Source of the DNA: Balanoglossus misakiensis
Lineage: Eukaryota > Animalia > Hemichordata
Reading direction: 5' to 3'
Assembly: GCA_040954595.2 (NCBI GenBank)
Contig: CM082587.2
Location: 4,668,093 to 4,732,092 of the forward strand
Length of the DNA stretch: 64,000 nt
Positions 40,501-62,299 of this stretch are shown piece by piece. Each line of letters starts with the position of its first letter. Positions within the stretch are counted from its first letter, which is position 1. The notes under the pieces were generated by a model. That model saw only the letters and a list, made by a program, of their open reading frames with translations. It was not told where the DNA came from and did no database searches. Position numbers and translations under genes: made by a program.

Positions 40501-41123
40501 TCCGCCTACATTAATTTAGCAGTTGCGCAAATCATGCTAAACAATATCGTAAATAGTTAACCTATACTGCACCCAATCTGGCTTCCAATTTCAAACGTAT
40601 ATTTTTGCAATTTCGCCTTGACTTAGAACGGCATTGAATTTAGTGGTTCGATTGACAGGCGCCTAAAGAGGTTTCTTTAACCGAGTTCCGCTTGGTAGTC
40701 CGAACGGGATGTTGATAGAATAGGACGCAATTGGTAAAAAATGCTATTTAGTCACACAATATTCAGTTTTGAAGAATGACTTCACCGCTGCAACGACGAT
40801 TTTCCCCTTTTCTGCAGTGAAAATTATCGTCGACCTGAAGTGACCCATCGTCAGAGTACAGTCAACTAACATTACCTTACATGAAATAAACCCTGTTACT
40901 TACTGGTGGATGACGTTGCTGTTTGGCAAATTTTCCCGGTGAAACCAGGTGAACACAGACAAATATAGCCTTCCGGGCCACAGTCTGGCGCGCAAAGGCC
41001 CCCGTTGAGACATGGATTGACGCCGGGGCAGTTACAACTTGCCAATATCGTCTGCCACAATGTCACTGAGTGAATGAACAAACTGAGTGTTTCTCGATAT
41101 CGATGCGAGACCGCTGTTTTCAT
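21216..41123 (-). CDS. Secreted mosaic protein: signal peptide-EGF-LDLa x2-sushi/CCP x5-LamG/pentraxin-like domain
   Basis: Exons 41123-40904 (signal + [22 protein letters not shown]), 27394-27161 (2 LDLa), CCP exons ~27054-26884, 26091-25927, 25582-25418, 25092-24928, 22784-22620 (all phase 1, mostly 165 nt), 22320-21673 and 21558-21424 (LamG-like: [33 protein letters not shown]). The link across the 13.5-kb intron and the terminal exon (21286-21216) are inferred. Confidence 0.7.
22419..22501. repeat. (GAT)n microsatellite, intronic
   Basis: About 27 trinucleotide units; source of the poly-His pseudo-ORF. Confidence 0.97.
24340..24710. repeat. Three diverged tandem copies of a ~130-bp unit
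   Basis: Recurring blocks TACAAGTTCTTTGAG..TTCGTC..TTCAATAAAAA..TGGGAGTGG.TTATT.CCGTACCGA.CAT starting near 24340, 24472 and 24598. Confidence 0.9.
25272..25304 (+). repeat. Dispersed repeat fragment (possible MITE-like element end)
   Basis: GCCATTTTGAATTTCAAATTTGAGAC recurs as its reverse complement at ~57360-57385. Confidence 0.55.
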
Positions 41124-43141
41124 GCTTCGTTTAATTGTCGCTGATGTAACGCCGAAAGTTATTTCCAAGTCATTTACGGCGCAGGCGCTCCCTCTATTCA
41201 CAAGAAGGAGTCCGCGGCGACCTTGTCCAAAAGGCAAATTCTGTCCCGCGGGTTTTGTTAACAGTCACCTCTCCAGGGCTAGTCGACCATCACACCGAAA
41301 CTTGTGTCGAAACAAACTTAAGTAAAACTTAACTTGAACTTGTGAAAAATTGTTGTACAATAACCTCGACCGATGGCCGCACCTACGTTGGCCAAAAGTG
41401 GAAATCACGACTTTCTACGAGTGCCTATTGTCGGGCTGTCAAGAAAAGATAGGGCCTTGTACTATAGGAAACCGCTCAGACGACGCGATGCGAGAGTGCT
41501 GGCGTGGCGTGGCGACCGAAGAGTTATCTGTCAACACGCGACTCTTGAGTTGTAGTGGCTGAACCGAGTGCACTCCCCCGAGCGACGTCGGCAACAAAAC
41601 GACACGTCGTCTTGATTGACATCACGACAATACCGCGTTCACAGCGATAACTTTATCTCGTGGCCGTCGAATGCTTTGCAGCTCGCTTCACCGCGCGCGC
41701 TCCTGGCACATGCGCATAGCTGTGATAAGTCTGCACCATTCCCCGTTTCCCTGTGCGCGTGGGATAAGGTAGCCATGGAAACAGTGCCAGTGTGATTCAA
41801 AATGCTAAGCAAGGGCAAGATGGTACAGTTTTTTCCCCAATCTGTGATTGATCACAACAATTAAGAGGATTATTTAATGATCTCGGTGATGCATGGAAAT
41901 TCACTCATGATTGCTGACCATACGGCGTATTATTCCCAGGCAAACGTAATAAATATCCCACCCGTATCTTTTACTGTGACATAATTATAATTAAATCATT
42001 TTAATGGATTGCGCCGGTCTCTCGCTTATTTCTATAATTTCACCTTACCCCTATTGAGCATTGCCATTTGTCAGCGGACATGGCAGTTTCGGTTACGTCA
42101 CTCTAAACACTGCAGTTTAAACTTTTCTGGGCACTTCGTTTGAGCAGGACTCGAAAATAAATGTTACGTGTACTCGCGATCGATGGAGGAGCCAGTACAC
42201 TTCCCTGCAGCATCCATGCCACGAAAGAGATGGAACTGCTGGCGTAGATGGCGTGTACTGATCAAGATTTATTTAAAGTATGCAGATTCCGCGAGATAGT
42301 ACATTTTGACTTTATGATTGAAAATGCTATTCGAAGAATAGGGATGCAGAAATGAAGGAAGCTTGGGAGGAGAACACGTGTACATACTGTCCCGCCCTTT
42401 ATTTCGCGATAAAAAATTCATCGAGCAGACAAAAGGTCTGAGACAATGGCAATAGATTTTCTGATAAATAATCGCACACGAATCAAATGTCAATTTAAGT
42501 CGATAAGAGTATATGTCTCATTATCTGTGCCTTTTCTATTCCGTTATCATGCATTTGTTGTTTATGAATGGTAGTTATGTTACTGTTAGGTTTTCATTCT
42601 CCCAGTAAGGCAATCCGTAATGGATGTTTATTTTAAATTCTTAAGGTAGGGTATTATCACGACATGAAAGAGTGTCCGATAAAAAAACGCATGAGAGATG
42701 TCTCCATCCAGTGTTGCCGCCAAAATGGCGACTCTCGTTCCTCTAGAATACTTCATCTAAATTGAGACACCACGCTGCCTGCATCGTCAAGTATATTAAT
42801 CTCTGTTCTCTGCGTTCGTTCGGTATAGCGTGTTCAATAACGCATTACGTTCAGCACGAACCCCTGCTATCATTAGAGGGATTTCGAACAATGAAATGTA
42901 ACTGTGCAAGGTTTATAGATTGATAAATTGAGCTATTTCCTGTTTGTCTGCCGGCTATTTCACTCATTACCTTTGCACGTTTCATTGCATCATCCCACTT
43001 AGTGGGTCTTGTCTGAGGTTTTACGACGCGCAATCGCGGGGATTCGGTCGACATTGCTGAATAAGGCATTCGGGGTTGCGACCCCTTCGTGTATGCGGCA
43101 GATTTATATCCAGCGTGTGATCTCGGTGGCAACAGAACACG

Positions 43142-43211
43142 TCTTCGTCGTCATCATCGTCGTCATCATCGTCGTCGTCGTCATCATCATCCATCCACAC
43201 AAGTACATACG

Positions 43212-43253
<42 letters not shown>

Positions 43254-43281
43254 CAGACAAACACACAGATAGACAGACAGA
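43142..43281. repeat. Compound microsatellite (GTC/ATC)n, (CA)n, (AGAC)-like
   Basis: Direct inspection. Confidence 0.93.
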
Positions 43282-44806
43282 TAAACAGCGTGGGTTGTCA
43301 GTAGAAACTCCAGTCAAGTTTTCCAAGATCGATTGTCAAAAGTTATATTTCCGGGTAATGGCTTTACCGCGAGCTGGCAGGTCCAATCAAATAAACCAAC
43401 ACGCGTCATGTATCTCAGTAATGATTTTACCACGGGATCAAACCAGTCCAAAACCAATCAAAATATTTCATACCGTTTGAGGTAATTGCGTTGCCTATTT
43501 GTACGCACTGATGTCCCCGTAAATGTCTAACCATTAAATGACGTAGGCAGGCGAATTGAAGCCCGAAACCGCAAATGATTGTGGACAAATTGTTGTGAAT
43601 TTGCCAAATCGTACTATTCCTGTTGTTTGCGACTCCAACTCATTGAGCGCGTGACCATCTTCTGAACGGAACTAGATTGGAATATTTCGAGACAATTGCA
43701 CGTAGATAAATGGGTTCACGTACTTTTCTTCGCTTGATGCTGAATGCATCTTGTGGGGTCACGATCGATTCAGACAATGGACAGAGGTGCCAGTTGTAGA
43801 GATACGAGTATATCTCCACCTTCGTCGATCAATATCATCCCCAATTAAAATGGCAGAGGCGGTGTGATATGGCCACTCAGCGCCTACCACTAATTACAGT
43901 CTTTCGTGCACTCATTCTGTGATGGTGCCACCTTTCCAGTCGTTCGCTCCATTGTCGACGACAGAACCGTATATCCTCACCGCATTTCCTTTTGTCCTGA
44001 AAATGGATTGGGATATTATTTTCACGCACCGCGGACCTCATAAATACGAAACACCTGTTAAGTATTGAGGTCATACGGCATTATTTGAATATGGCTTGCT
44101 TTACACGAAGGAAAAAAAACATGTAATTCAATTCTCACCAAACACCTCTTATGAGCTGTGCTCCGATATCCAGTGTACAGTGTGTCAACACTGGCTAACC
44201 TTCATTATACGAAACACGAAGAAAGCAGGATGACGTGATTACAACAACTTTTTTTCGCATTAGAGGAATACACAGCCCCAGCTGCCCTTCCCTGTACATG
44301 CTAAAATTAGACATGCCTTGTGAATAGCGGTGGAGCCTGGAATTCAAAGGGATGGGTTTATGTGATAAAAGAAAACCACAAATTGAAACGAAGACAAAGA
44401 CCTGTTATCAGATTTCCCGCGGGAGTTGGAGAAACTCTGTATGTGTTAAACAAAATTATCCCAAACGGGTGCTGGAAACTTTATCTTAGGTAGTTGGTGT
44501 GTGTGTGTTCGCCTCGCCGTTTCGCATGTTTGTTTAGTAACCTGTCCGCGTCTTACGCCCATGGAACATTCTCGCCAGGTTCGAAATGGTAAACGCTTCG
44601 TTTTTGTGTTCCTTTGACTTCTGCGCGCACTACGCTCGAAATTCCAGTGAATAATTTCGACCGCGTCGTGTGTTCCACAAAATCGTTATCTTTGTGAAGT
44701 TGGTCGACGGTTCTTGACAATTTGTCATGCTCTTTCGGCAGTGAAACCAATTTTCTGTAGACGCGCTGCGAGGTATTTTCCACACAATAGTATTACCAAC
44801 GATATT

Positions 44807-46867
44807 ATGTCACAAAGTTCGGACGGCTCAAACAGGATCTCATTACTAACCGAAGACCTCATAAGCTTGAATGTTACAAGCCCAAGCGACTGTAAGCTTA
44901 CCAGTGGAGACGAAGAAAAAATCGCCCCACTTGGCATATATGGAGCAGATGTCGACTCCTTGCCTAGAAGAATTCACCACCCACGGAAAAACAGGCCATC
45001 GTTGCGAAGCTACTCAGAGCAACGCTTCTGCAGCCGAGTAGGGAGGCGACAGGATTGGCTGAAGTCGCTCAAAGAAGTCAGTTCACGGCCCGATAGCGCT
45101 GGCGTAACCCTAGAATACCTGGATCATTCAGAAAGCTCTGGTGATAATGGGGGAGACAGCGATCCGATTCACGGCGCACAGGAAATTTCTCTCCGTGAAT
45201 CTGATCAACCGGTAAACCACGGAAATACGTCAAGGACAATTGGATATCAATCGAAACAGAAGTGGCGAGCGATTTATGCCAGGCGAAAGCACGCGTCATT
45301 CAGGAAGCAACAGGCCGTGGCGAAACCGACGAGGGACGGATACGGAAATTATGAGAGGGGTCGATGCAGAGAGGTTGACCGGGCTTATCATTGCCAAAGT
45401 AGCAAGTCGCCTAAGTACCCCTCCCAAGACGCCAGAAACAGAACGTACAAAGTGGGCCAGCAGCAGCAGCGCCAATATTGCGGCAACTTTGCTCACGGCC
45501 AACGCAACAACCACTACAGAAACGGAAACTACCCGAAGAAGGGTGCCACCAACGGTCAAAGCCACAGGGAGGACAAAAAGCCGTACGGCGGTGTTCCTGG
45601 TGACAGGTGGTGTAAGCAAAACCGGCCGAACCAAGACAGGCGCGGACGAGGAGGCGCCCGCAACAGTGTTTACATCCATTTCCGAGAAGATGACGACGAC
45701 ATCATCCGCGAACACGCAGAGCCTTGGTGGCACGAGTACGAGGAGACGCCCGACAGTAGGCCTAACTGCGACAAAAACCACCGTGACGTCATCATGAACA
45801 AGACAAGACGACCCTCGCGGCCGCAGCCTGCAAACAAGAGCCAAAACCACAAGTTTTGGCCACCATCGAGAGAAGCGGGTCATCACCAAGCTAATGCGTC
45901 TCCGCACGGACGTACCGATGCACGTTCAACCGACAGAAGGACAGAAGACCGGCGGGCGACGCCAAGATCACTCGATCGGAATCAAAGGTACACAAGGTAT
46001 TCACCGAAGAGAAACGGTAACTTCGAGAGAAGCAAGACAGCCACAAGAAGGTGGACGGATGACCGTCAAAGAGAGCGTTCCTTCGGGCACGCTGTGCGCG
46101 GAAATTGCACAAAGCATTGGGATAAATTCGACGAACCTAGAAACCGACAGGAGGAAAGTGACAAACATCGCCACTCCAAAACCAATAATAGCGTTAACAG
46201 CAGGCAAACGCAGTGTCAAATGCCCAGACAACGTCAGGCTTACCGTGGCCAGCCAATACATGGAGGAAAGACAGGTAGTCCGCACGAAAGAAAAGTCACC
46301 AGTAAAAATCAGCAAACGACACCCAGAAAACATCAGAATAATCGAACAAACGGCCACTATAACAGAAATCGCCAGACGTACGTGTCAAACGACAAGCCAA
46401 CACCCGATGCTGTCGAGCAATGCTCGAAGTGCCGCCCGTGCGATCTCCACAGACAGATCGCAGCGCCACCGCGTGGCGGCTATGGTCGCAGAGAATCGAG
46501 AGAGAGCGCCCACCCGCGTCCCAGTCCGTGCGCATCTAAAGTCAGGAGAAACAATCGGGTACCACCAGCAAAAAAGAAGATGACAAGAAGAGTTTGGGTT
46601 CCTAATTATCCCACTAGAAATTTCGAGAAATCTCACGAAAATATGATCAGGCGGCAGGTGGGTCTGCATCGGCAACACCAAGGGAGCTCAGTTCAACGCC
46701 TGCGCACAAGTGATGAAGACAGGCCTGCAGATTTGGTCACTTTGCGAGCACCCGAAGTAGATTGCTCTGACGAAGACACATCTGAGTGGTCTTTGTCGCC
46801 ATACAGTATCTATGACAGCGAAGACACATTCCGAGCTGACTCACCTTCTTTGATGCATAACGATTAG
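44807..46867 (+). CDS. Intronless 686-aa Arg/Asn/Gln/Ser-rich, probably disordered hypothetical protein
   Basis: 2.1-kb stop-free frame (ORF track 44714-46867; first ATG at 44807), with ATTAAA ~47093 and AATAAA 47274 downstream; no recognisable domain. Confidence 0.65.
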   Translation: MSQSSDGSNRISLLTEDLISLNVTSPSDCKLTSGDEEKIAPLGIYGADVDSLPRRIHHPRKNRPSLRSYSEQRFCSRVGRRQDWLKSLKEVSSRPDSAGVTLEYLDHSESSGDNGGDSDPIHGAQEISLRESDQPVNHGNTSRTIGYQSKQKWRAIYARRKHASFRKQQAVAKPTRDGYGNYERGRCREVDRAYHCQSSKSPKYPSQDARNRTYKVGQQQQRQYCGNFAHGQRNNHYRNGNYPKKGATNGQSHREDKKPYGGVPGDRWCKQNRPNQDRRGRGGARNSVYIHFREDDDDIIREHAEPWWHEYEETPDSRPNCDKNHRDVIMNKTRRPSRPQPANKSQNHKFWPPSREAGHHQANASPHGRTDARSTDRRTEDRRATPRSLDRNQRYTRYSPKRNGNFERSKTATRRWTDDRQRERSFGHAVRGNCTKHWDKFDEPRNRQEESDKHRHSKTNNSVNSRQTQCQMPRQRQAYRGQPIHGGKTGSPHERKVTSKNQQTTPRKHQNNRTNGHYNRNRQTYVSNDKPTPDAVEQCSKCRPCDLHRQIAAPPRGGYGRRESRESAHPRPSPCASKVRRNNRVPPAKKKMTRRVWVPNYPTRNFEKSHENMIRRQVGLHRQHQGSSVQRLRTSDEDRPADLVTLRAPEVDCSDEDTSEWSLSPYSIYDSEDTFRADSPSLMHND

Positions 46868-47345
46868 ACACTGTTTGCATTGAATTATAAATTATATATC
46901 CGTACCAACCAACCAACGCAGGGACACAGATGTACACGTACTCGCGTACGTCAAATGCACGAATGTGACTTTATTGACTTGATTTACAAAATACAAATGT
47001 ACATGGTTGATATGTTTTGGTTAATAGGCATACCATAAATAGCCTGCCAATCAACAGGTGCCTTTTGAACTGCGTGTGGTTTGATACGTGCAATTAAAAA
47101 GTTAAAAGTTAGCGCCTATCCCTCGGAATGAATAACACATATCAGTAATTTAAAATCCACAAGCAGACTTTACACGTCATCGATGATAGCTGCTAAATCA
47201 GATGATACGACTATCTTAGTATAAAGGCAGAGTTCGGGATAATAGTAAAACAATTATAACAGTAGAAATGTTCAATAAATTATCAATATCAATAATGCTA
47301 TAAGTGTACGTGACCGTTGGGAGTATAAAGTGTTCAGTGAATAAT

Positions 47346-47867
47346 TCACTGCGTGATCACATGATTCGAATCCACTTTCTTGGCGGGAAGTTCCAAACTC
47401 CCCAAGGCCGTTTCAACGAGTCTCGTCACTAGAACTCCATACGCTCTGATGTCTTTGCTGAACGCCAACCGCTTGACGCTGAACCTTCGCTCGATGTACT
47501 TTGACTTACTCATGTCGGAGAGGAAAGCTTGTTTTATGGACCCCTGTGGAAACGGGAAGAACAGCAACACAAAGTTAGCAAACGAAACGAAACGAGGCGA
47601 ACGTTTACAGAACTTGAAATTGTGGCGTTCTTGTTTAAGAAATCAGAGGAACACTCACGTCGTTATTCCGTATGATCAGGATATTTTCTTCTCGCACTTG
47701 ATTGTGCAAGGTGTCTTGTCTGTGTAGGAACTCCAGGGCGGACGCGACGTCGGCAGCCACCGTGTGGACATCTGTGATCTTCAATCCTTGAACACGCGTG
47801 TTGATGTGGACGGACAGCGGTATGTACGTGTACGGTGGCAATGGGATCATGCGACTCACAGGCATTT
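47346..47867 (-). other. Degenerate protein-kinase C-lobe in the GPCR cytoplasmic tail
   Basis: [45 protein letters not shown] aligns by eye to kinase subdomains VIa, VIb, VII and IX. Confidence 0.75.
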
Positions 47868-50800
47868 CTTCGTGTAAGAATGAAACTGTGAGGAGAAAAA
47901 ACAACAACAGTATTCATTAGCGACTGGGTTTTTTGTTTTTCCGAAAAGACATAATACACAGACCTGTCTATCTATTCTACGGCTGTATAGTGGGACGTCT
48001 TTGCATTCACCATGCAATATTGATTAGAACATACATATGTTTTAATATAGAATCTATACCTGTAGGGTTTATTGCAGATTCGGAGTTCTCCGCATTCTTG
48101 GTTCTGGATTTTCTGTTGCCGTTGATCGTAGAGATGGTATACAGGATGGGGTTCGCTGCCGAGTTGACTGGCAAGAGAAACACCGCCGTCCAGGCGTACA
48201 CTGTGCCGGGAATGGTGACTGCGTCCGCCAAGGCCAGCATCGCCATCGCCGTGATGGGTACCCAGCAACAGAAATCGGTCAACACGATCAACGTCATGCG
48301 CTTGGCAATTGCCGCCTCCTTGGATCTCCTGTGCGACTGTCTCCCGGCCACCGCCTTACTGGTGCGCACGACGTCGACGTACATGATCAGGTAGCACACC
48401 AGGATGACCACGAAGGACAGGAAATTCAGGAACAGAAGCGTGACCGAGTACTCCCAGCCGGGCGTGGTCTCGTTGGTCAGGTACAGCGACAGGCACACCG
48501 GGGAGCGCCCGTAGTAGCTGTCGCCGAAGTACGGGATGCTCATCAGCGGCAGGGCGCTGAGCACCGCGGACACCAGCCAGCCGAGAACGGCCACGACGAC
48601 CGCGTGTCGATACTTCGAGGTCATGAACCGCAAGGGGAACACGATCTTCAGGAATCTCTCCACCGTTATTGCCGTCAGAGCGAACACGGACACCTCGCTC
48701 GACAGAGTGGCGATGAAGCCGGCGAAGTGGCACAGGTGCGACGCGCGCCACGACTGGTCGTATCTGACGTAGACACCGCGATAGTACATGTCCGCCGAGG
48801 CCACGATGAACAGGTACACCCCCATCAGACAGTCCGACATGGCCAGGTTCCAGATCAGAAACGTCGACATCTGCTTCATGTCGCTCTGCTTCGTCCGCCA
48901 GACTATGACAAAGGCGTTGCCCACCAAAGCGAAGGATCCCAGAATCCAGACGAAAACCCGCAACACCGAGTTGGCCATCAGATCTTCGCAGGAGGAGAAG
49001 GCGTCGCCCGGCGGTGTACACAGCTCGACCTCGGTGTTCTTAGAAACCATACAACAGTACATGAATGCTTCTGTGTATCTGTGTGGATTGGAAAGCAGAA
49101 GAGAGAGCATGTTTGATATCGCGAGATTGCTGTTTTCATAATAACACACCGATGTGTCGATAAGGTCGATTGTCCGTTTATGTATTATCAGCATTTGCTC
49201 CTAATTTACATTTTAAAGTCAAGACAAGGGAAACAGCTGTCTACGGAGTGGTACCTACATTTGACGCAGGTTAACCAGCGGACGAAAGAGCGCATCGCTC
49301 TCCACAGAAAACCGGTTGCCCGTTAAATCCCTGTAAGAAACCAGAAAAAATGTTGCTCCCATCTATATCTGCCAGTTTGACTGTCGACTGCTCCCCATCT
49401 CTCTCTCACTCTCTCTTTATTTAGTTTTGAAACCACGGAAAATACGCTCATGAAATAGTAAAGTTCTCTTTGACTTACAAGACTTGAAGATTGTCAAGAC
49501 CTTCAAAAGCACCATCAGATATCCGTGTGATCCTATTATTCGATAAGGCACTGCAAGTGGACAAGACAAACAGAAGAATTCCATTAACACGTATACAACA
49601 TACATTTGTCCTGGTCGTGTCAAAATTCATGCTTTCTAAAGAATATGAGGTGTGCTGTGTCATTGTGACAGAAATGTTATAGTTATACAAATGTAGTTAC
49701 AGAATGAGAGATAACTCACAGTTGGCGCAAACGCTGTAGTCCAACAAACGTATACGCATCCAGATGGTCTATGTTGTTTCCGCTGAGTTGTCTGGAAGGT
49801 GACGATAACGAAGAATGTTAGTGGCATGTCCTTCATGTGAGATGAGCTGTTACAGTAGTTTTTTATTATCAGAAACATCTTCAAACATTCTTGAGTGATT
49901 TCATTTCCATGTAATAGCTATGCACTTGTACATTGTACTTACAAAATGTACATGTTGCTGAGAAATCGGAACTTCATCACCGGAATGTCAGCTATAGCGT
50001 TGTTGGATAAATCGCTGTGAAAACAAAACGAGATGACGAATACATAGATTGTTAACTGAGGTTACAATAAATTACTAACCAGTACAATACAAATACATAT
50101 ATGGTTTGAAAGCATATTTTGGGGGAAAGCCCATACACTACGTCAATACTTACAGCTCTGCCAAGAATTGAAAGATAGTGAAGTCAGCCTGTGAGATGTT
50201 TACGTTGTTACCCGTCAGGTTCCTGTAGAGAATTATGATAATTGATAATGAAATATTTGATCTTTTCGATATGAGAACGATCAAAGAAAGAGGCAGAGAA
50301 TGAATTAAATGTTCAAAGTGTTCAGTATAGTAACATTGTATTTTGAACAACTACTTACAATTTCCTAACTTCGAAAATATTTGACGGCATCTCTTCGATG
50401 TTATTATTTTCGCAATCAATCACATAACCGTTGCAACGACAACCAGTCGGACAGCTGATACCTATAGACAGAGAAAGGAAAGATGACATTTTATATGTCT
50501 GGCTGATTAATATATGCTTATGTACAGTATTTCGATTTTTAAGACCTGTCTCTGACAGGTACACCAAGATGTAAAATATCTATGCCTACCGCAGGCGAGT
50601 TCATCGTCTCCACGAGGACACTGTTTTATACCATCACACCTCTGAGCCAGTGGAACACACTGCTTCGTGTCGTGGCAGCGAAAATAGCCAGGACAGGTGA
50701 AAGAGTCTGGAAAAAAAGGGGCGTAAAAATTAGAAATTAGAAAGGTGAGGCTGTTACTGTGCTGGCCAATTTTAAAACGGTTTGAAGGATCAAGACTTAC

Positions 50801-53800
50801 CACAATCTCGTTCGTCGTGGCCATTCGGGCAGTCTGAAGTCCCGTCACAACGCCGATGCAACGGTATACAGTACGAGTCGGGACATTTGAACATTCCACC
50901 GGGACAGTTAAACTGGGCTGATGAGTAGGAGAAAAAGAGATTCAGTAGATCAAGGTGGATGACATACGTGTCTGACAGCTAAACTTCATCGTCAATAATT
51001 AAAAAGTGGCTTTTACACATTGCGTAAAATATACTTTCATCCAACGTCACCTATGGAATGAGCGTAACCGCCATTGACATTTCCTTGTGCCGTGTTTAAT
51101 AGTTGACCTTGACCTACCACATGATGTGAGGTGGGTGACATCGCGACACCCAACCTGGTAGCCGTACTGGTCGAAATCGTAGATGCACATCAGCGTACGG
51201 TTGATGCAGAGACCGTTGTGGCATTGAAACTCATGGTCGCCGCAGTTCTGTGCGTCGTCGTCAATGGTGACGTCACAGCGTATCTCGTCCTCCCGCTCGT
51301 TTCCCGCGCAGTCTTTTCTGCCGTCGCATTGCACGTGACTGGGTAGACAGTCCCCGTTGTAGCACTGGAACCCTTTACAGACATCTTGTGGAGAGAAACG
51401 TTGTAGAATTAATAATAAAACGTTTCTCAAAATGACAATAGATCCATAATCAATAAGGAAGCTAGGTAGGCTAATTGCAGAAGGACAAAAGTACAATCAT
51501 CAATGCATGAAAAAATTAAACTAAAACTTACCACATGCCACTTCGTCAGACCCATCTTGACAATCTGGTATTAAGTCACATCTCTTAGATTGAGGCAGAC
51601 ATTGTCCATTATCACATCTATATTGAGTTGTTGTACAGTTAGGATAGACTGTAACAAATCACAGAGAATCAAAATCAAAACATGCAGTTGGTCATCATAA
51701 TTACATAGTTACACAAAATTATTAAGGCTCTAGATTGCACACATGGTTGGTTTATAGTACATGTATATATCCCTTGAGCATATTCAACCAAAGACGTATA
51801 CATACCACAAAATCTTTCATCACTGTTGTCACCACAGTCGTCGACGAAATCGCAATAGAATGTCATGGATACGCACTCCCCGTTTGCACACTGAAAAGTG
51901 TTGGTCGGACAGAGATTGTCCATTGCTGAAGGGAAAAACGAGAAATAGCGTCAGAAGCACATATTATTGAAGTGGGACCCGTTTTTTATGTTGAAGTTCC
52001 AGGCCATTTCGGTCTAGAAAGTAATGGCCGTCATCGACTTCGATGTTCCAAATATGGCGTCCAAATATGTCACGTGACAGTTCCCTTAACTCACCACAGT
52101 TTTCTTCATCGGACCCGTCTAAACAGTCTTCAGTGCCGTCACACACACGCACTTCATGAATGCAAACGTTGTCACCGCACTTAAAATTGTAGTCACCGCA
52201 GTCCAGTTGATTCACTGTTGAGAACGTGAAAAACAAACAGAATCGTGAGCGATGTCCTAAACTACGTGCTATCAACACTCTTTTAAGAAAAGTATATCTT
52301 ACCCATTGCCTGACTGTTACAAAGTTCGTACTCGGTCATACATTCTTGTAAGCCCCAGCTCCATCCTTCCGTGTGCAGAACCAGACAAGTGTCAGATTTA
52401 TTCAAATCCGTTGCCATGGTGCTGTTTTGTCCAGCTCGGCAGGAAATCCCACATCCTTGCTCAACCATGTCAACTACTTCCTCCGTCACGTTACTTTGTA
52501 CTGCAATATAGCCAGTCGTTGGTACGGCCCAGATGTTGTTTACGTAGTATGCAAATAGTTCCAGTTCGTAGTCTGAGACAGGACTTGGGAACGTCTTCTC
52601 ATTTTCTTGACAAGAATCCCGAGCGTTGGTCTGTACTAGTTTGAAACATACACCGCCGTATCTTCCCCAAGACAGGTCACCACATGCTAGAAAGCAAAGA
52701 ATATGCAAATTCGCATAAAGTACGTCATATAAAACCTGTCCCTTATAAACAAATACCATTCGGTGCTATATACACTTGAATTTTTTCTGACCACTTTGTT
52801 GGTTGTTTGTACCGGACTTACCATAACGTGCCACGCCATTGTATGGTGGATCAGCTTGGTGCCCGACATACAATGCCGGTTTCTTGCAGATGAACTGTTT
52901 GACGTAATCCGCTGCACATGGTATGTCGTGCCAGTGATTGGTGTTATGCACGTTTGTCATTGATATGACCGTGCAGCGTTCAAAGCTCGCGCCGTCGGGC
53001 TGGTCGTATTCATCTCGGCTTTCTGCTCTAGCCCTGAAATAAATGGACACTTACAAATTAAGTAAGAAGAAGTCAATCCACTAAAGGAATCGCCTCAGAG
53101 TGTCCCAGAAGTTCAAAAACAACATTTGGGTACTCAAATCTCCTTGATGTTGGTATACTGTATGACTTACCAAGCGGTGAAACTCATGGGATTGCCGTCT
53201 GACCATCTGTGTTGATGTTTCCCCGGCTCCAGCATAAGACCTACCAGATCAATGAAAACTTGAACGTTAATAGTCTTACTTGCCTATCAACCGAACCCAA
53301 GAAAGCTTCAACTTACAACTACCATTTACTGCTTAAGGTGAAGATGGACAACTTACCTATATAGGCGGTCGCGTCGCCGTTCCACCACATTCTGGCAAAA
53401 GCATACGTGACAAACTGGGATTCGTCTGAATCCAGTATACTGACAAGGTGAGCGCCATCTTCGGCGCACCTGGACTCAGCCTCGACCGAAGTCAACGTAC
53501 GGTTTTGCGAATGAAACCTGTAGCACTCTTTGCGAAATCCATCCCAACCGTCTTCCTGGCAAACGTAGTCTGAATAGTGGAGAATGAAGGAGAAATCATA
53601 AACATTTGATAGCTTGGAAATAGTGTTTTCGTGCCGGTATCATGATTGTGAAAAGGATTGTAATGTGAATACTCACCCAGATTTAGAGTAATATTTATTT
53701 GCAGGTTGGATTCGTAAGGAACAGCAAAATACTTCGCTAAGAAGCCAGAACCGCCTCCTGCGTCCAGCCCTCGGAACTCGACAAACATTTCGGAACTGGC

Positions 53801-55444
53801 CGATATCACTCTACTCGGACGACTACTGCAGAAAGTGCCGTAGAGGAAGGCCTCGTCCGGACTCTCCGAGTTGTAGACTTTCAAGTAGTTGTTGACGCAG
53901 TCGGGATCCAGGGAATGGCCGACGTTGAAGTCGAGGAACGTCAGCTCTATAACGTCCCCTACTGGCACCTTGATGCTCCAAGTCGACGCGCAGTCGGGAG
54001 GGTTCGGGAACGGGTAACCGACAGACTGGAAATAGCCGCACCTCGTTTCCATGTTGAAGTGTTGGCCGCAGTTTGAGAACCCCATGCCGTAAGCCGGACA
54101 GTCTGAAACGAAGAGAGGAGGACGATTTCTCTTCATTTGTCATACAAAAGTGATATTTTTCTGCAAATAAATATACTATTCATATAATTTAAGATATACA
54201 TTTCGCGACCATGCACCAAGGACAGCTTGCTTGATAGGCTACAGACTCGCCCTATCATTTCTATCTTATTCGCGCACAGATAAGTAATTTCAGACACAAA
54301 GCCGTGCAGTCGTACCTGTGGTGTAATAATGAGCGGTGAACCCTCTACCAGTGACGACTTCTCCGGACGAAAAGACAACCGTCATAACATTTGACGTCGA
54401 TGATATGAGAGGAATCTCCGAGCCACAGAACTTGGACACCAGTGTGGCGTCGTTGGTCGCCGTGTCGTTGTACAACGCCACGTAGTTCTGGCAGATGGAA
54501 TTCCCCGTGGCTTCAGATTCGGGCAGATCGAAGGTGTCAAAGACGAGGTGTATGAAGCGGTCTCCCGCGGTAGATATCACCCATCTACATTTGCTGTTCG
54601 GGTAAAAACTGGCAGATCCCGTCACGAAGTTCATCGTTGAGAAGCTGCCCTCGGCCGCTGTTAGTCTGGCCGGCGCCCCGCACCCTGAACACTCGTGCTC
54701 TTGCGGATCACAGTCTGCAAAATGGACGGTGTTTGTCAAACGGCGAAATCTGTTTGTGTGTGTCAATGAAATGTCCATGAATCTATACAATAGTGAGTCT
54801 TACAATCACTTACATTTTTGCAGCTCAGCGACGACAGGAATCCTGTATGCACCGGCCACAGTTTCTACGTGGAAAATCTCTCCTATTCCAGTAGCGCCTG
54901 GTGTGTGTGACACCATTAGATTCTTACCCTTGCACAAGGAGCAGTCGTAACACCCTACGCGTTTTAGGACGCGGCATTTGTTTTGGCAGTATATACCTAG
55001 AAATTAAATTTGAAATAAAAAATGACCAATCAGCAAATTCGTATTAAAGGAAAAATCTTCAAAGATGCTGCACACCATTGAAAAGGAATTTTCTGATGTG
55101 ATACTGACCTACAAAATCTCCAGGTTGAAATGACAGGCGATCATCAGGAGAAACATCGACAGTGAAGACACTACCAAGTTCCCTTGGTATCGCAATCTTG
55201 TTTTGACCTATCATGGTAAACTGGGTCCTGTGACTGCGACGGTAAATGCCCGGATAGAGATACTCCTGCCCGTCTTCCACCACGTCGGATTTGAACTGCC
55301 ACTGCCTGATTTTCCCCGCACAGGGCAACTTCATCGTCTGATCAATAATGATCACAGGGCCGTCCATCTCGGTGGTGGTGTCATTGTTGAGGTTGCTGTT
55401 CCCGATTGATGTCGGACAGTCCAATATGCCTAGCGAACAACAAT

Positions 55445-55497
<53 letters not shown>

Positions 55498-58400
55498 GTT
55501 AAAAGTGTCACGTTCCGAGAAAACACTGCTATGTGTTTGCTTACTAACAATATGTGCAAAAAAACGCCAAACTAAAATTTCGATCCTGGCGTTTGTTTAG
55601 TATTGAAATGTATGCACCAACCTGTCGGTACTATTACAAGTTGAAAGATGTTCAAGAGATAAACCTCGTGTTTGGTAAACTTGACGACCATAGCCTGGTT
55701 GCTGCTGTAGACGGCCTGAAAACCATAAACGGGCAAAGGTGAATTAATATATAGGAGAAATGTCGAACTATGAGCATTCAAGTTGTAAATACAGAATAAT
55801 GGTGGTGGTGTGGTGGTTATTATGATGGCAGAAACAGTGGCCATTAAAATGGAGTATAAAAAAGACGAAAATATATCAAACCTTCTACGATTTTCTCTTA
55901 CCTTGGGATACTGTCGGTCGATCCCACAGACGAGCGCAAGTTGATCATAGTCGTTGTCTACTATCTCCAGATAGTCAATAACGCATTGCGGCTGTATGCA
56001 ATCACCGACTTGGTTGTAGAACTCAATGAACAGTGTAATTGTGTATCCTGCAGGTGGAAATTCGAACTTGTAAACTTAGCAACCAAATCACAAAACCAGT
56101 CGGTCAAGCTCTAAACTTAGTCAGGTATGGGCAAGTGTACGCGACCTTCTAACATCGTTGAGTGGAAATAGGACAGATACACGCGACCATACACCACAAG
56201 TGCACAACAAAGCAATTTTAGACCAAAAGAATATTTTCAACCCCGCAATATGAAATCATTTTGAACTTAACAGGTCGTAGTAATACATACCACGCGGCAC
56301 AGTAACCCTCCAGTAACAGTTTAACATTTCCCGCGGTCTGAAACTTATCACACCAATGTCATTTTCCGAGAGTATCAAAAATTCATCGATGCTGCAGACC
56401 TCGGAGTACACTGTCAGAGAGAACATAATATTTTAGCTATTAGTATAGTACGCAAGATTGCTTTGCCACTGATTCAACCGAACTAGGCTTAATTCCACCG
56501 TTTAATGCACGGCCTGTGCTATTAATTTTTCGTAATAGATGCAAGGAAGGTTGATACTTACGTAGACATGTGTCGGATTCGGGGTCTGCATTGTTGACAA
56601 CAGTCGAGTCGATTCTTTGGATACATTGGTCACTGCAGCCATCACTCTTGGTGCCCGAACCAATACAGGATTCTAGTCCTGTACGAGTAAATATTCAGAC
56701 GTTTTACTCATTTCTATCTCCAGCGTTAGTCATTCCCAACAAGAAAGTTGTGAGTTACTGTAGGCCTACATATCATACTGTGTATTTGTGGTTCTGTTAC
56801 TCATCGTTTATTGTGTAAGGGACTATTTTGTCACTGACCTGCGCAGCGATCTTGTCTTGTTTCGTGATACTGGTACATGTAGTTTCTTGAGAAGCACGGA
56901 CATATCAGGTGTCCAAGACTGTGTCGACAGATTCGGTCACAGCCGGTTCCAACAACCGGGAATGCGCAACGGTCCGCTCCTGTAACACAATATAATCTCT
57001 GTCTATTTGTGTGAAATTCCTGGTGTTCGTCGGCCAGGAGTATGTTCAACTTGGTGAAACCCTAGGCAAGGCAGTCATCTACGTTTCAGCCCCCAGAATG
57101 ATGCAATAACTTCTCTGTACGAATTAGACAGGTAACTCATGCGCGTGCGTAATAGCCAAGTGAAGAGCTATGCTATGCTTTATGTATTAGGATAACACAC
57201 TGATTCCTTCACTCCGAGTTATAGACTCCGTCCAAACTATAAATGTCAACTAGTTTTACCTGATTGTTCACAAATGTAGCGCATCTGTATGTCACAGTCA
57301 TCCTCGATCCATTTCAGGTTGTTATCGCTTGCCCTGTTGACCACGAGAGAGCAAAATTTGTCTCAAATTTGAAATTCAAAATGGCCGCCAATCTCTGTGT
57401 CGACATTTTGACTGAGCTGTGGCACTATGGGAGGGGATCGTGCAGTACAAAAAATAGAATTCTTAGAATGTTAGTCCGTCTGTAAAAGTCTTGAGGGCGT
57501 ACACTCTTTTGATTAACTCTCGTGAGGATATGGCGTAGTTCAAAAAATAAAATTCAACCGACAATGAACCGAGATACATTGGTTAATGGCCTACTTCAAA
57601 GTCCTGACGCAGGGACCATTTCCGTTCGGTTCTCCTTCGGGAAACCGGTGGTATTCCGAAAGGGTTCCGTCGGCGAACTGTAATTCCACCGAGTCATCGT
57701 CGAAGTAAACCACCCTGTCGTCCATCCAGAATTTATTGCCGTGATCCGCTTCAATGGTGAACGCCCTGAACTCCGTGTATTTCTGGAAATCGGTGATCTT
57801 CGCCAACATCATGCCGTAACCGTCACAAGTCAGGGAAGCGTCGTAGTTGCTTTTCGACAGCCGGAACGTCACAAATTTTGAGGTGCCTAAAAGGAGGAAG
57901 AAATCGATAATGATCGAAGACGTTTTCTGGCGTATGCACTTTCTTCTGAAGAAATGAGGCGTCTCTTTCGCAGGTGTGATTTTTACTTACGTGTACACAT
58001 TTTGCCGTCTTCGTGCAACCTGTAGCCAGGAAGACATTCACAGAAGTAGGAACCTGGACTGTTGACGCAAATCTGCTCACACGGCGAGTCGCTTTCAAGA
58101 ACTGCACATTCGTCAATGTCTGCAAGGAAACAGAAATTGTTAAAATGTGTCTGTCGATGTCGTTGGTACTCCATGCGCTTGGTTGGGGAGGGGTGTTGGG
58201 GGGGGGGGGGGTGAGAGCGCCCTCGATCGACGGATGAGTCTGACTCTCACCTGTGCATGTACCATTCTCCTCCTGGCGGTAGCCTTCACAACAGTCGCAC
58301 GCTCCTGACTCCGTTGCGTTACACGATGCTACGTCACCATCTGTACAGTTGCTGGTATCTGAAACGTAGAGAATGAATAATAAGCCCGTGATCAATGATG

Positions 58401-61400
58401 ATATGCTATTATAAGCTTTTCTCAAATATGGAGAGATTACAAACAGGCAAAGCTGTGGCCGGACTGGTGGTGACGTCATGCAATCGCCAACTCTGCCGAA
58501 GGATCTGGTCCTATCGTGGATGTGGTACCAGAAATTACATTCTGAAAGTGCGTTTGAACGAAAAAGCTTCCCAGTTAAAAAATAGCACCAACCTCGTCCA
58601 TACACTTCAACCTCACACACATTGAGAATGTCAGATCTTCCGGGGTACTGAACGGTGACGTATCTTCCCAGTGTCTTCTGCTTGCAGTACATGACATGCG
58701 CACCCTCGGCGTGTACGCTGACAGGTTCCCCACAAAGGTAGTTGTCCTGCGGCGAAAGACTATTCCCAGCGCGGACTTCGGCGCCGATAATGCGATCCCC
58801 TGAATAGGAAAATATAATCAAACTTGGATGTCGATGGGGCGTACAAAACAGGGCATCAAAATGGCCGTTCGTGTAAATGTGTTCAGTCGAGAAAGCTAAC
58901 AAAATATACGCGCCTTACAACGTCCAAAGCTTAAGTCGCCAATAGAGTGAATTCAAATTTCAACACGAACGTGATGGATGAGCCAAGAAGGCTGCACATG
59001 TATGGATTCTTTCCCGACAAAGGAAGTTCGACAGGCGCTAAAATGATTTCGATATCACAAAGCTGCGCTCGCTGATACCCTAGCGCATTCTCGTAATTGG
59101 GTGCTTAACTATTGAAACTCGCACAAAGGAACCGTTTCTACGAAAAGTTGAGATATTTTCAGCCAAAGAAAACAAGATTAAAACAGCTCAGCAACCGTTT
59201 ACATTTAACAAGCTTAGATTGCGTACGGATCATGTCGTGATGGGATTAACGGTCCTGTATTTGGGGTATAGGTAAACCGACCTCATTACCCATACTACAA
59301 CCATGGCATGTGTTGGCATATTTCCGTTGAAAATAGGCAGCATCTAGCCTCCAGTTTGATGGTGTACTAACAAAAGAATTAAAGCCATAACTAATGAACA
59401 GAACCGATCACTTACTAAAAGTACCCTTTCTGTTTAAGATGACCACTTTGAAGATGTGAAACTCGCTATGCAAATCAACTCTCCACCACGGTTCATAATC
59501 GTACTGCGTCTGCGCACAAGTATCCAAGAACGGGCCGTTCCGGTTACCGTCGATGGCTTTGCCGGCCGCAGTGTCTTCAACGTATGTGCTGCTCTGTGTG
59601 GCTGTCTTTCCCAGTGCCACGTTTAGTCTGTCACCTGAAAGGGTATATCACATAGATGGCTTTAACAGTTTCAGTAACTTTCGACCCATCCAATTGGAGT
59701 TCATTCGAAAAATGTATGGCATATCTGCTTTGAGGGCATACTTACCTTCACAGTTTATTTCATCGGAGCCGTCTATGCAGTTCTGTTCAAAATCACACAC
59801 GAACGTCAGAGGTATACACGCGCCAGAGCCGCATGTGAATTCATCCTTTGCGCACTCTGAAAGCGAAGAGAAATTTTCCAAAAGACAGAAAGATAATTAT
59901 GTATAATGGCCTCAGTCGAGGAAGATATGACCACGAGACATGCAAACACACCACTCTATGCATACAACTTTTATTGTTGACAAGAATAAGACTTCATCCG
60001 CTGCCGAACTGCTCTGTAAACGCGACATAAAGCTTTCTGATATCAGTTTTTAGCAAGATCGATCCCTCAACAACAATGTATTTACCTCCACAGGATAGCT
60101 CGTCTTCTCCGCCAGGACAATTCGGCCAGTAGTCACAAACCTCCAAATTGCTCACACATGTTCCGTCAGTACACGCATATTGACGGTTCCCACAACCTGT
60201 ATTCAATAGCACATAAACAAATATTTTATAATATTAATATTTAAATTCCATTTTCCGTTGAAATTGTTTGCTTTGATCAATAATGGTTACAGTTACTCAA
60301 ATTACTGCATCGCAGAAGGCTTTTAGTCGCATATTTAATTAATGATTTATAAATGTCTTACCCGCGCACACGTCCTCGTCTTCGCCATTATCACAATCAA
60401 TATTGCCATCACAGACCCAGAAGTTTGGAATGCAGGTCCCGTTACTGCATAGATAACTACGTTTCCCACATACTGTGTGAAGCAAGGACATGTACTTTCA
60501 GATGCATATATACGTAGATTTTCATTTCCGAGCTAATCAGTTTGTTTTCCCTATACAACAGTGATCAAGTTCTCTTGATGTTCGAACTACTGTTACTGCT
60601 GTCGCTTCCAGTTTTCCTGTTGTCTTGAGATAGGGCTGGTTTAGTCGCACCCCTACCCCCCCCCCCCCCCCCACGTCACCCCAGAAATTGCTGCAAAGAT
60701 TACATGCTTACTTGCGCATCCCTGCTCATCTTCGCCCTCTGCGCAGTCGACGTAGTTATCACACATATAGGTTTCGGGAATGCATGTACCATCATGGCAG
60801 CTGTGCTCGCAAACTGTGTCACAAAATTTACGAGATGCTTAATTAACCCGAAAAACTCGTAAAGAAACTACTTCGTTTTGTACAGACATCTATATTGAGC
60901 TACATATACATGCAGAGAGAACAGAATGATAAAATACGTAAAGTGGATAATTTTTGTTTCGTGTAGGAAGATGGCCATATCGTACCCATTTCGATCATAT
61001 CTTCATCACTTTGAAAGTACAGTCTACCCCGACGTTTAAAAATTAGTTTCTAGAAATTAGGACAATTCTTTACCTTGACACGTTTTTCCATCTTCTTGTA
61101 ACTGGTGTCCCTCAAGACACTCGCAGTAAAAAGATCCAATCGTGTTCACACATGTGTGCTGACAGCCGCCATTGTCATTCGTGTCACATTCATCAATATC
61201 TGAAAATATTGAAATACTGCTTTAAAGGGACATTAGCTATACTCTTTGGCTTTATTCTAGTAACCGTGTCATAAATTAATGATATTGAAAGTGACATTAA
61301 GGTGACAGCTTCTCGCTTTGAAATGCCGCACATCTCACCTTCACACGCGTGTTCACTCAGCAAAGGCGTGAATCCAGAAGGACACGCGCAGACGTGCTCC

Positions 61401-62299
61401 TTGTACGGGCCTATCTCCCATTTGACGTCGCATGGCGCTGGCTCGTACACGACTTGGGTCTGCAGATGAAAGTAGCATACAAAACAATTGACACATATCG
61501 CATATTTCGATGACTATGCTCAAAAGTAAATGTTGAATCAAAACCAAGCGAACAATCGCGCAGTTTAACTATACTTTTGAACGTGTGTTGTTGGCGAAAA
61601 CGGGGATGGTAAAATTAAAGCAATCGTCACGGGTTATTTTACTCAATTTAACAATTGAGATACAAGCGCCTGCACAGTGTATGTATAGATTGTTCGTCAT
61701 AATTCCTGACAGCTCACGATTCCATGCTTCAAAGCCTCGCGTGAAGTTTTTGTCGATATAGACATTGAAAGGACAAGATTCCTGCTTGTTGTCTTCCGTC
61801 CCCTGAGGAGGAAATTAAATGGACCGGGGAATGGAATATTCTCGACAGGCAAAGCAGTTAGAAGTCGACTGCGTTGTTTCTATTCGATGACACAGTAGAC
61901 GAACGTGCTTGCATGCACGGTAAAAGTTGGACACTTCTTTGACAAATTGAGCCCCCCCCCATCAATTGATTTCCCGTTAAGATGCTTTCGCAGAAACTAA
62001 TGCGACCAACTTTGATTGATACCTCCGGCATGCATCGTTTCAGTACTCCTTCATCGTTCATTGTTTCGCGATAAAAGATTTGCAAACACAACAGAGTGGA
62101 ACTGCACCGGTTCTCGGTAATCAACTACTGAGCCGTCCGCCGATTTCAGAAAGACTGCACTTAACAACCTCAACCAAGGGTGTCGATAGTGTTTCTCGCC
62201 TTCCATGTCTTAAATGGGAAACATCTGAAATACAGATCTTACCTTGCTCAGAGTAATGGACAGATACAATAAAACCAAACAACAACGAATCACTTCCAT
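47346..62299 (-). CDS. GRL101-like (LGR type C) LDLa/LRR G-protein coupled receptor with a giant mosaic ectodomain and a C-terminal pseudokinase C-lobe
   Basis: More than 35 exons: signal (62299-62243 or 63385-63320), EGF, cbEGF (DIDEC), 4 LDLa (60.8-59.7 kb), fucolectin (59.6-58.6 kb), EGFs, CTL, CUB, unknown domain, 2 CUB, CTL, degenerate CTL, 7 LDLa (52.2-50.6 kb), LRRNT + five ~72-nt LRR exons (50.5-49.3 kb), 7TM exon 49078-48060, tail exons 47867-47659 and 47543-47346. A few internal junctions (57.6-55.6 kb) are not resolved. Confidence 0.88.
48060..49078 (-). other. Hinge + rhodopsin-type 7TM exon of gene F
   Basis: [13 protein letters not shown] hinge, [44 protein letters not shown]: LGR/RXFP/GRL101 hallmarks. 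Confidence 0.95.
55436..55497. repeat. (AAC)n microsatellite, intronic, next to a splice acceptor
   Basis: About 20 units; source of the poly-Cys and poly-Asn pseudo-ORFs. Confidence 0.97.
57360..57390 (-). repeat. Second copy of the dispersed repeat fragment at 25272
   Basis: GTCTCAAATTTGAAATTCAAAATGGC is the exact reverse complement of the 25.3-kb core. Confidence 0.55.

Follow-up and report, generated by a model that had tools for sequence, protein, structure and literature searches.

A predicted protein-kinase C-lobe remnant on the cytoplasmic tail of a type-C leucine-rich-repeat receptor from Balanoglossus misakiensis and related bilaterian receptors

The 64,000-nucleotide stretch of the acorn worm Balanoglossus misakiensis analysed here (contig CM082587.2, positions 4,668,093 to 4,732,092; hereafter the window) carries on its minus strand a multi-exon gene for a leucine-rich-repeat-containing G-protein-coupled receptor (LGR), and the finding reported here lies at its 3' end, where two exons are predicted to add a kinase-derived domain to the cytoplasmic tail. 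Judged from sequence and from fold models of relatives, this domain is a protein-kinase C-lobe remnant of about 100 residues, consisting of an alphaD-alphaE-catalytic loop-beta7-beta8-alphaF core. Sequence comparison indicates that the tailed receptor is not a one-off but belongs to a conserved family in deuterostomes and protostomes. On balance, the tail is probably an old non-catalytic docking (protein-binding) module on a receptor that still likely couples to G proteins. An earlier sequence-only reading had already described a dead half-kinase here, and the alphaE, catalytic-loop, DFG-equivalent and alphaF motifs that it quoted do lie in the minus strand where it placed them.

A kinase-derived domain at the 3' end of the receptor gene

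The elements of the tail region, in the order of transcription, are as follows.

48060..49078, minus strand: single exon with the hinge end, the seven-transmembrane (7TM) region (motifs ERF, CCWVP and NPILY) and the start of the cytoplasmic tail (Pfam 7tm_1, E 8.3e-36)
47886..48059, minus strand: phase-1 GT-AG intron of 174 nucleotides (nt) with a weak donor (splice matrix)
47659..47885, minus strand: tail exon 1, with linker, hinge, alphaD, alphaE, the dead catalytic loop HNQVREEN and beta7 (Pfam PF07714 above cut-off)
47867, minus strand: weaker in-frame acceptor of tail exon 1 (splice matrix)
47700-47698, minus strand: Gln codon replacing the catalytic Asp, in tail exon 1
47544..47658, minus strand: phase-0 GT-AG intron of 115 nt in the beta7-beta8 loop (spliced alignment)
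47346..47543, minus strand: last exon, with beta8, the DFG-equivalent DMS, a shortened activation segment without APE, alphaF and a short free end (sequence, spliced alignment)
47516-47514 and 47453, minus strand: Asp codon of DMS and Asp codon of alphaF, in the last exon
47348-47346, minus strand: stop codon TGA of the receptor gene

Tail exon 1 alone matched the Pfam family PK_Tyr_Ser-Thr above its cut-off (E 4.3e-6; 26.7 bits, cut-off 23.1), and the solved sequences that it matched were kinases. The joined tail found the tail of its orthologue in the hemichordate Glandiceps talaboti at E 1.7e-27 among 120 proteins, and from NPILY onwards the two genes are 43% identical across 157 aligned residues. 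A tail profile of 24 rows reached RAF kinases at E values down to 7e-9 and also matched two-domain JAK chains. The nearest kinase was the JAK JH2 domain with the first alignment and, among single domains, RAF with a broader one; a JAK-JH2 origin, suggested by the former, was not upheld by the latter, and no donor kinase family is fixed because this rank depends on the alignment.

The AlphaFold2 model of the Ptychodera tail (predicted local distance difference test, pLDDT, 87.5; predicted template-modelling score 0.76) contains alphaD, alphaE, beta7, beta8 and alphaF, and that of the Glandiceps orthologue tail contains the same core at pLDDT 76.5, with residues 1-15 below 50. Every row listed by Foldseek for a tail model was a kinase domain (probability 1.00, template-modelling score by query up to 0.60), and so were the folds of all 50 VIA-align rows, which aligned from the hinge to alphaF and were led by a match with Z 12.1 and a root-mean-square deviation of 2.7 A over 97 residues. 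The kinase-fold check proposed by the sequence-only reading thus came out as it had expected, on a relative's model. A structure search of the ESM Atlas with the tail also returned kinase rows; with the receptor, the ESM Atlas gave no usable feature match. These models suggest that the core likely folds on its own. A tail homodimer prediction, run without an alignment, scored 0.01, which speaks neither for nor against dimerisation. An N-lobe remnant in the linker was considered from a Pfam match in one member only (E 0.026) and is not claimed, both models being disordered there. Existing annotation is nearly blind to the domain: a kinase Pfam entry was on record for 1 of the 120 proteins of the 7TM search and for none of the 20 of the second tail search described below.

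Residues lost and retained

Residues were counted over 40 aligned tails, isoforms dropped, with 78 intact kinase domains as the comparison. The catalytic Asp is present in none of the 40 tails, and the HRD Arg, the catalytic-loop Lys and the DFG Gly in one each; the DFG-Asp (23/40) and the catalytic-loop Asn (12/40) partly survive. The residues kept are the alphaD Leu (40/40), the alphaE His (35/40), the alphaF Asp (34/40) and the alphaF Gly (33/40), together with the hydrophobic pattern of beta7 and beta8. The window gene has Gln at the catalytic Asp position. Its tail carries no N-lobe (Gly-loop, beta3 Lys, alphaC Glu), no catalytic Asp or DFG, no activation segment with APE and no alphaG-alphaI, and by its sequence it is predicted to be incapable of phosphorylation, as had been claimed from the window alone. 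In established kinase anatomy the Gly-loop, beta3 Lys and alphaC are N-lobe elements, and because they belong to the missing lobe the tail would also be unable to bind ATP in the kinase manner. The C-lobe order from alphaE to alphaF given earlier held, with two amendments, namely that the domain also has alphaD and that it loses alphaG-alphaI.

The spacing of the landmarks bears out the claim that N-lobe and APE are missing. Between NPxxY and alphaD lie 48-79 residues (32 tails), a region disordered in both models, and the DFG-Asp and the alphaF-Asp are separated by a median of 18 residues (34 tails) as against 41 in the 78 intact domains. The chain ends 13-41 residues after the alphaF Asp in 27 of 33 tails. 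Positions +6 and +9 of alphaF are polar in 20/34 and 23/34 tails and in 2/78 and 0/78 kinases, and hydrophobic in 72/78 and 70/78 of the intact kinases; position +2 has a like trend to polar residues, but there the kinase set was fixed by the search pattern. The alphaF face that once lay under alphaG-alphaI has turned polar, which suggests an old truncation and a core fitted to exist by itself. Five members (P0187, P0199, P0220, P0224 and P0291) carry acidic or Ser-rich inserts of 20-50 residues in the beta7-beta8 loop, possibly a phosphorylation or binding loop.

Predicted splicing of the tail exons

Splice matrices were trained on the other sites of the gene, comprising 24 acceptors (minimum 3.8) and 23 donors (minimum 2.5). 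Acceptor 47885 scores 12.1 and acceptor 47867 scores 2.8, below the training minimum; both are in frame. Alignment to the Glandiceps orthologue gives 123 bits and 5 gaps with 47885 as against 114 bits and 11 gaps with 47867, and the former appears the likelier site on these sequence measures. The two tail exons then contribute 142 amino acids (aa), or 136 aa with 47867. The two remaining sites score 9.9 (acceptor of the last exon) and 4.9 (second donor), the phases are compatible (1, then 0), both introns have GT-AG ends, and the GC content at third codon positions (GC3) is 0.64-0.65 in the tail exons against 0.32-0.33 in the two introns. Of the earlier exon model, then, the phases and intron ends stood, while its acceptor at 47867 and its length of about 135 aa appear the less likely.

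The spliced tail of the Balanoglossus gene is a predicted model, open in frame and collinear with its orthologue. Beyond 48060 the unspliced frame runs for 17 extra codons to a stop at 48009-48007, and a short tail-less read-through form is possible because the donor after 48060 is weak. The combination of a weak donor and an in-frame intron stop (48059-48007, minus strand) could serve as a switch between tailed and tail-less receptors.

Distribution and origin

Of the 120 proteins that the 7TM search listed, 9 bear the tail and 1 more breaks off within it. The tail profile, searched against 1.84 billion representatives, brought 146 new proteins among its best 150; in 20 of these the domain follows immediately on an LGR 7TM, 7 are fragments of such genes, and the remaining matches, as far as inspected, were ordinary or multi-domain kinases. 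In a second tail search all 20 matches were a 7TM plus tail. In all, 49 of 165 7TM proteins reached at least 15 bits on the tail profile, in a set that is query-enriched and includes isoforms. LGRs with a complete pseudokinase were absent from the rows listed by the searches, which were word-limited or capped at 150 rows and so do not speak against their existence.

The tail-bearing members come from hemichordates (Glandiceps, Ptychodera, Saccoglossus), sea urchins (Strongylocentrotus, Lytechinus, Diadema), the abalone Haliotis, the nemertean Lineus, the priapulid Priapulus, myriapods (Strigamia, Chamberlinius) and chelicerates including spiders, a tick and mites (Nymphon, Stegodyphus, Oedothorax, Dermacentor, Leptotrombidium, Dinothrombium). 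The LGRs of vertebrates, insects, crustaceans, annelids and cnidarians in the comparison, where some of these groups had few sequences, gave no score on the tail profile. Single open reading frames on Logan, ENA and JGI contigs (P0142, P0156, P0173, P0199, P0220, P0252, P0283, P0284 and P0288-P0290) contain both 7TM and tail, and the fusion is therefore not an artefact of gene models. A metagenome scan with the related protein P0290 yielded no locus.

In the tail tree, the 40 tails fall on one side of a branch and 30 intact kinases on the other (SH-aLRT 100), and 23 protostome-type rows group together (89). On these sequences a single origin of the tail fits best. The 7TM tree is a quick tree of 67 rows that excludes 5 short fragments and has an unresolved backbone between clades; it places the window gene in a clade of hemichordates (6 rows, 99), all labelled tail-bearing, among which the partial model P0002 breaks off within the tail. 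The intron in the beta7-beta8 loop, its position in relatives inferred from read-through protein fragments, is suggested also for echinoid, myriapod and mite-type copies (P0129, P0216/P0257, P0294, P0181). Hemichordate tailed paralogues occur in at least three 7TM groups (P0001-P0003, P0133, P0145, P0149, P0279, P0293, P0130, P0004, P0137, P0144, P0204).

Comparison with known receptors and kinases

The gene is, from its predicted modules, a large type-C LGR with an ectodomain of CUB, lectin-like, LDLa and leucine-rich-repeat (LRR) modules and a rhodopsin-class 7TM. It has the features of that type, namely a rhodopsin-class 7TM and an LRR ectodomain with LDLa modules before it, and its closest 7TM matches among the 120 listed are GRL101-like and RXFP receptors. 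GRL101 and the other type C2 LGRs (Lymnaea GRL101, arthropod LGR5) share with it several LDLa modules, LRRs, a related 7TM and orphan status, and GRL101-clade rows show about 48-52% identity to its 7TM among the matches listed. Unlike GRL101, however, the window receptor has CUB and lectin-like modules, and it falls outside the GRL101 clade (13 rows with Lymnaea, Patiria, Haliotis and Cherax; SH-aLRT 97), which has no tail. By sequence the window receptor is thus placed as a GRL101-like paralogue and not as GRL101. The survey of GRL101-like receptors that had been proposed did find the tail in other LGRs of several phyla, but not in the GRL101 clade itself.

The C1 and C2 classes of type-C LGRs are set out in PMC11863921. 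IGF has been proposed as the ligand of true GRL101 (PMC8286064), a proposal that need not apply to the window paralogue. The type C1 receptors RXFP1/2 and LGR3/LGR4 have LDLa, LRR and a rhodopsin-class 7TM in common with the window receptor, but only one or two LDLa modules (PMC11863921); no relaxin-receptor row among the 7TM proteins compared scored on the tail profile.

Fusions of a GPCR with a tyrosine-kinase-like or other kinase (GPCR-TKL/K) or with a tyrosine kinase (GPCR-TK) are described from oomycetes, amoebozoans, choanoflagellates and sponges in PMC12716839 and PMC6033456. According to the former none of them has been functionally studied, and TK-type fusions are limited to choanoflagellates and early-branching animals; the latter describes the oomycete bigrams and has an inactive-domain model among its speculations. 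In metazoans beyond sponges these authors found no such fusions. Like these fusions, the window gene has a kinase-fold domain C-terminal of a 7TM in one chain. In those sources the kinase domains are predicted to be catalytic and sit behind other 7TM families, whereas the window gene has a dead fragment of about 100 residues behind a rhodopsin-class LGR. PMC10463195 mentions several TK-clade GPCR-kinases in sea urchins and cats; these may overlap with the tail family, although the pipeline as outlined there uses Pfam kinase matches, which are mostly absent here. No description of a kinase-derived LGR tail was found in the literature searched, which covered few subscription journals. The earlier statement that kinase-tailed GPCRs are undescribed therefore stood for rhodopsin-class LGRs in that literature and fell outside bilaterians, where fusions are published.

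Kinase-related domains of reduced form or function offer a second comparison. JAK JH2, KSR, VRK3, STRAD and STK40 are dead kinase folds serving regulation or scaffolding, and pseudokinases of these types were among the tail's sequence and fold matches; they are two-lobed, whereas the window tail is one partial lobe. PRPK/Bud32 and Rio2 resemble the tail in having a C-lobe without an activation loop, with alphaF as the last PKA-equivalent element and one side of it exposed, as given in PMC7864929. By the same source they differ in keeping an N-lobe and the K/E/D/D residues and in being active, and the likeness is claimed for the fold only. Because PRPK/Bud32 has such a C-lobe, though with its N-lobe kept, a C-lobe ending near alphaF can be regarded as a viable unit (PMC7864929).

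Proposed role and alternatives

In the explanation that we consider probable, one kinase of TK/TKL type would have fused to a type-C LGR before the protostome-deuterostome split and been trimmed to the alphaD-alphaF core, its buried alphaF face being replaced by polar residues that would keep the core soluble. The ectodomain would bind a ligand outside, and the tail would recruit a partner or control the access of G-protein-coupled receptor kinases (GRKs) and arrestins. A protein-binding module is the simplest reading because the domain is folded, polar-surfaced, catalytically empty, flexibly tethered and kept since the bilaterian ancestor. We propose more tentatively, with slightly less than even confidence, that these receptors form an ancient bilaterian, relaxin-receptor-like GPCR branch in which an autonomous 'mini C-lobe' would give the receptor a further output, the docking of effectors, in addition to G proteins and arrestins. 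This branch was not seen among the vertebrate and insect receptors compared.

Several points weigh against this explanation. The tail tree rests on 102 columns, its 30 kinases were drawn at random from 55 parsed, and the intact kinases are drawn together in it because they were picked by motifs. On the 7TM tree the tail label needs 5 changes, at least 4 of them forced by starred branches, and several losses or truncated models therefore have to be assumed; Diadema P0033, for instance, has no tail, though its near-identical sisters do. Because many related LGRs are without the tail, it is dispensable in the wider family. Mean column identity over the family is 24% and few surface residues are conserved family-wide, and one shared partner is not evident because hemichordate, echinoid and protostome tails differ much. 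The fold models are of the Ptychodera and Glandiceps tails and not of the window gene's joined tail, and the coupling of the 7TM to G proteins, likely as it seems from its sequence, has the intact motifs ERF, CCWVP and NPILY as its sole basis. Finally, the donor after 48060 scores -0.1.

That last value is lower than the score of any of the 23 other donors in the gene and favours a reading in which the Balanoglossus 7TM exon runs through to 48007 and the tail exons are unused or serve a minor isoform only. This is very improbable in view of the strong acceptors (12.1 and 9.9), the phase-matched open frames, a GC3 typical of coding sequence and the orthologue, in which the tail is joined in the same way; the read-through stretch, moreover, is rich in AT (GC 0.34 in the intron) and does not resemble the orthologue sequence. 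A tail that is used could still be without function today, the eroding remainder of an ancestral fusion of GPCR and kinase. Relatives across clades show 10-31% identity to the first row, many type-C LGRs, the annelid rows and the GRL101 clade among them, have no tail, and the echinoid copies are the most eroded, as a relic would lead one to expect. Yet lineages that parted at the bilaterian base have retained the same boundaries, the hydrophobic core and the Asp/Gly of alphaF, the polar residues on alphaF suggest adaptation, and the identity between the window species and Glandiceps noted above speaks against decay, which makes a relic decidedly improbable.

Two further alternatives grant the domain a function of another kind. 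It may act in cis, packing on the receptor's cytoplasmic face or aiding folding and export, and so serve as brake or chaperone. The domain always lies 48-79 residues past NPxxY in the 32 tails measured, within reach of the G-protein site, and among the proteins inspected it occurs only behind LGR 7TMs or in fragments of such genes. Against these stand a linker that is poorly conserved and predicted to be disordered (pLDDT <50) and sister receptors that manage without the domain, and we hold a cis role to be unlikely. Somewhat less likely still is completion of the half-lobe in trans, in which the bare alphaE-beta7-beta8 surface, normally covered by the N-lobe, would bind an N-lobe-like partner, a kinase, Hsp90-Cdc37 or a second copy. 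Cdc37 and RAF dimers use this region, RAF/KSR-style allostery or receptor dimerisation is conceivable, the Leu-His end of alphaE is the best-kept sequence feature (His 35/40), and among solved sequences RAF, KSR and JAK domains come nearest. The alphaE His is also structural, however, and the RAF/JAK matches name no partner because they cover only alphaD to beta7 and their rank depends on the alignment.

Significance

The textbook rhodopsin-class receptor has a short or disordered tail that GRKs and arrestins read. Folded kinase-derived tails retained in animals as far apart as acorn worms and ticks would bring bilaterians into the range of GPCR-kinase fusions and would show that a kinase C-lobe core can exist without an N-lobe. 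The fusion is apparently unpublished and a variant of the GPCR-kinase fusion theme, and apparently no Pfam family describes the domain as such. Because the domain is small, predicted to be soluble, readily expressed and present in experimentally accessible animals (sea urchin, Saccoglossus, ticks and mites), its partners can be sought directly.

Architecture of the remaining gene and neighbouring features

The nearest proteins, among the 120 matches listed by the protein search, are three receptors of Glandiceps talaboti with 62-64% identity in the 7TM exon. A spliced model built against one of them, LOC144437958 (P0001), has 27 exons and 1,766 aa, is stop-free and collinear, shows 51.6% identity and includes both tail exons. 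Its exon 1 (57049-56941) has a poor acceptor, is doubtful and is not trusted. The features beyond the 7TM and tail exons are listed below.

46970..46975, minus strand: AATAAA, candidate polyadenylation signal, 370 nt past the stop
49259..50461, minus strand: six phase-2 exons of the LRR region, four of them 72 nt long and the other two 103 and 69 nt (spliced alignment, collinear with P0001, a protein with LRR_8/LRR_4)
50590..52214, minus strand: six exons with about seven LDLa repeats (spliced alignment; Pfam Ldl_recept_a on two)
52387..53569, minus strand: four exons with C-type-lectin-like modules (Lectin_C weak, E 0.0054, below cut-off; P0001 carries PF00059)
53677..54714, minus strand: two CUB-domain exons (Pfam CUB, E 7e-16 and 2e-16)
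54814..56410, minus strand: five more exons of the ectodomain, collinear with residues about 37-323 of P0001 (spliced alignment)
57261..61460, minus strand: candidate further 5' exons with EGF-Ca, F5/8 type C, four LDLa and lectin-like modules (Pfam; link to the gene inferred)

A Pfam scan of two frames of the exons at 54814..56410 returned no family, and a start codon of the receptor gene was not found. The receptor may far exceed the 1,766-aa model, because relatives reach 2,800-3,400 aa and same-strand exons lie at 57261-61460.

Elsewhere in the window, a 738-codon low-complexity open frame rich in Arg, Gln, Asn and Ser (44651-46867, plus strand) faces the 3' end of the receptor gene and has no Pfam match at E 0.01. 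A separate cluster of LDLa-like repeats (27159-27449, minus strand) and an EGF-like exon (40896-41264, minus strand; Pfam EGF, E 7e-4, below cut-off) each belong to another gene. Microsatellite runs at about 43100-43260 and 55400-55480 appear as low-complexity frames.

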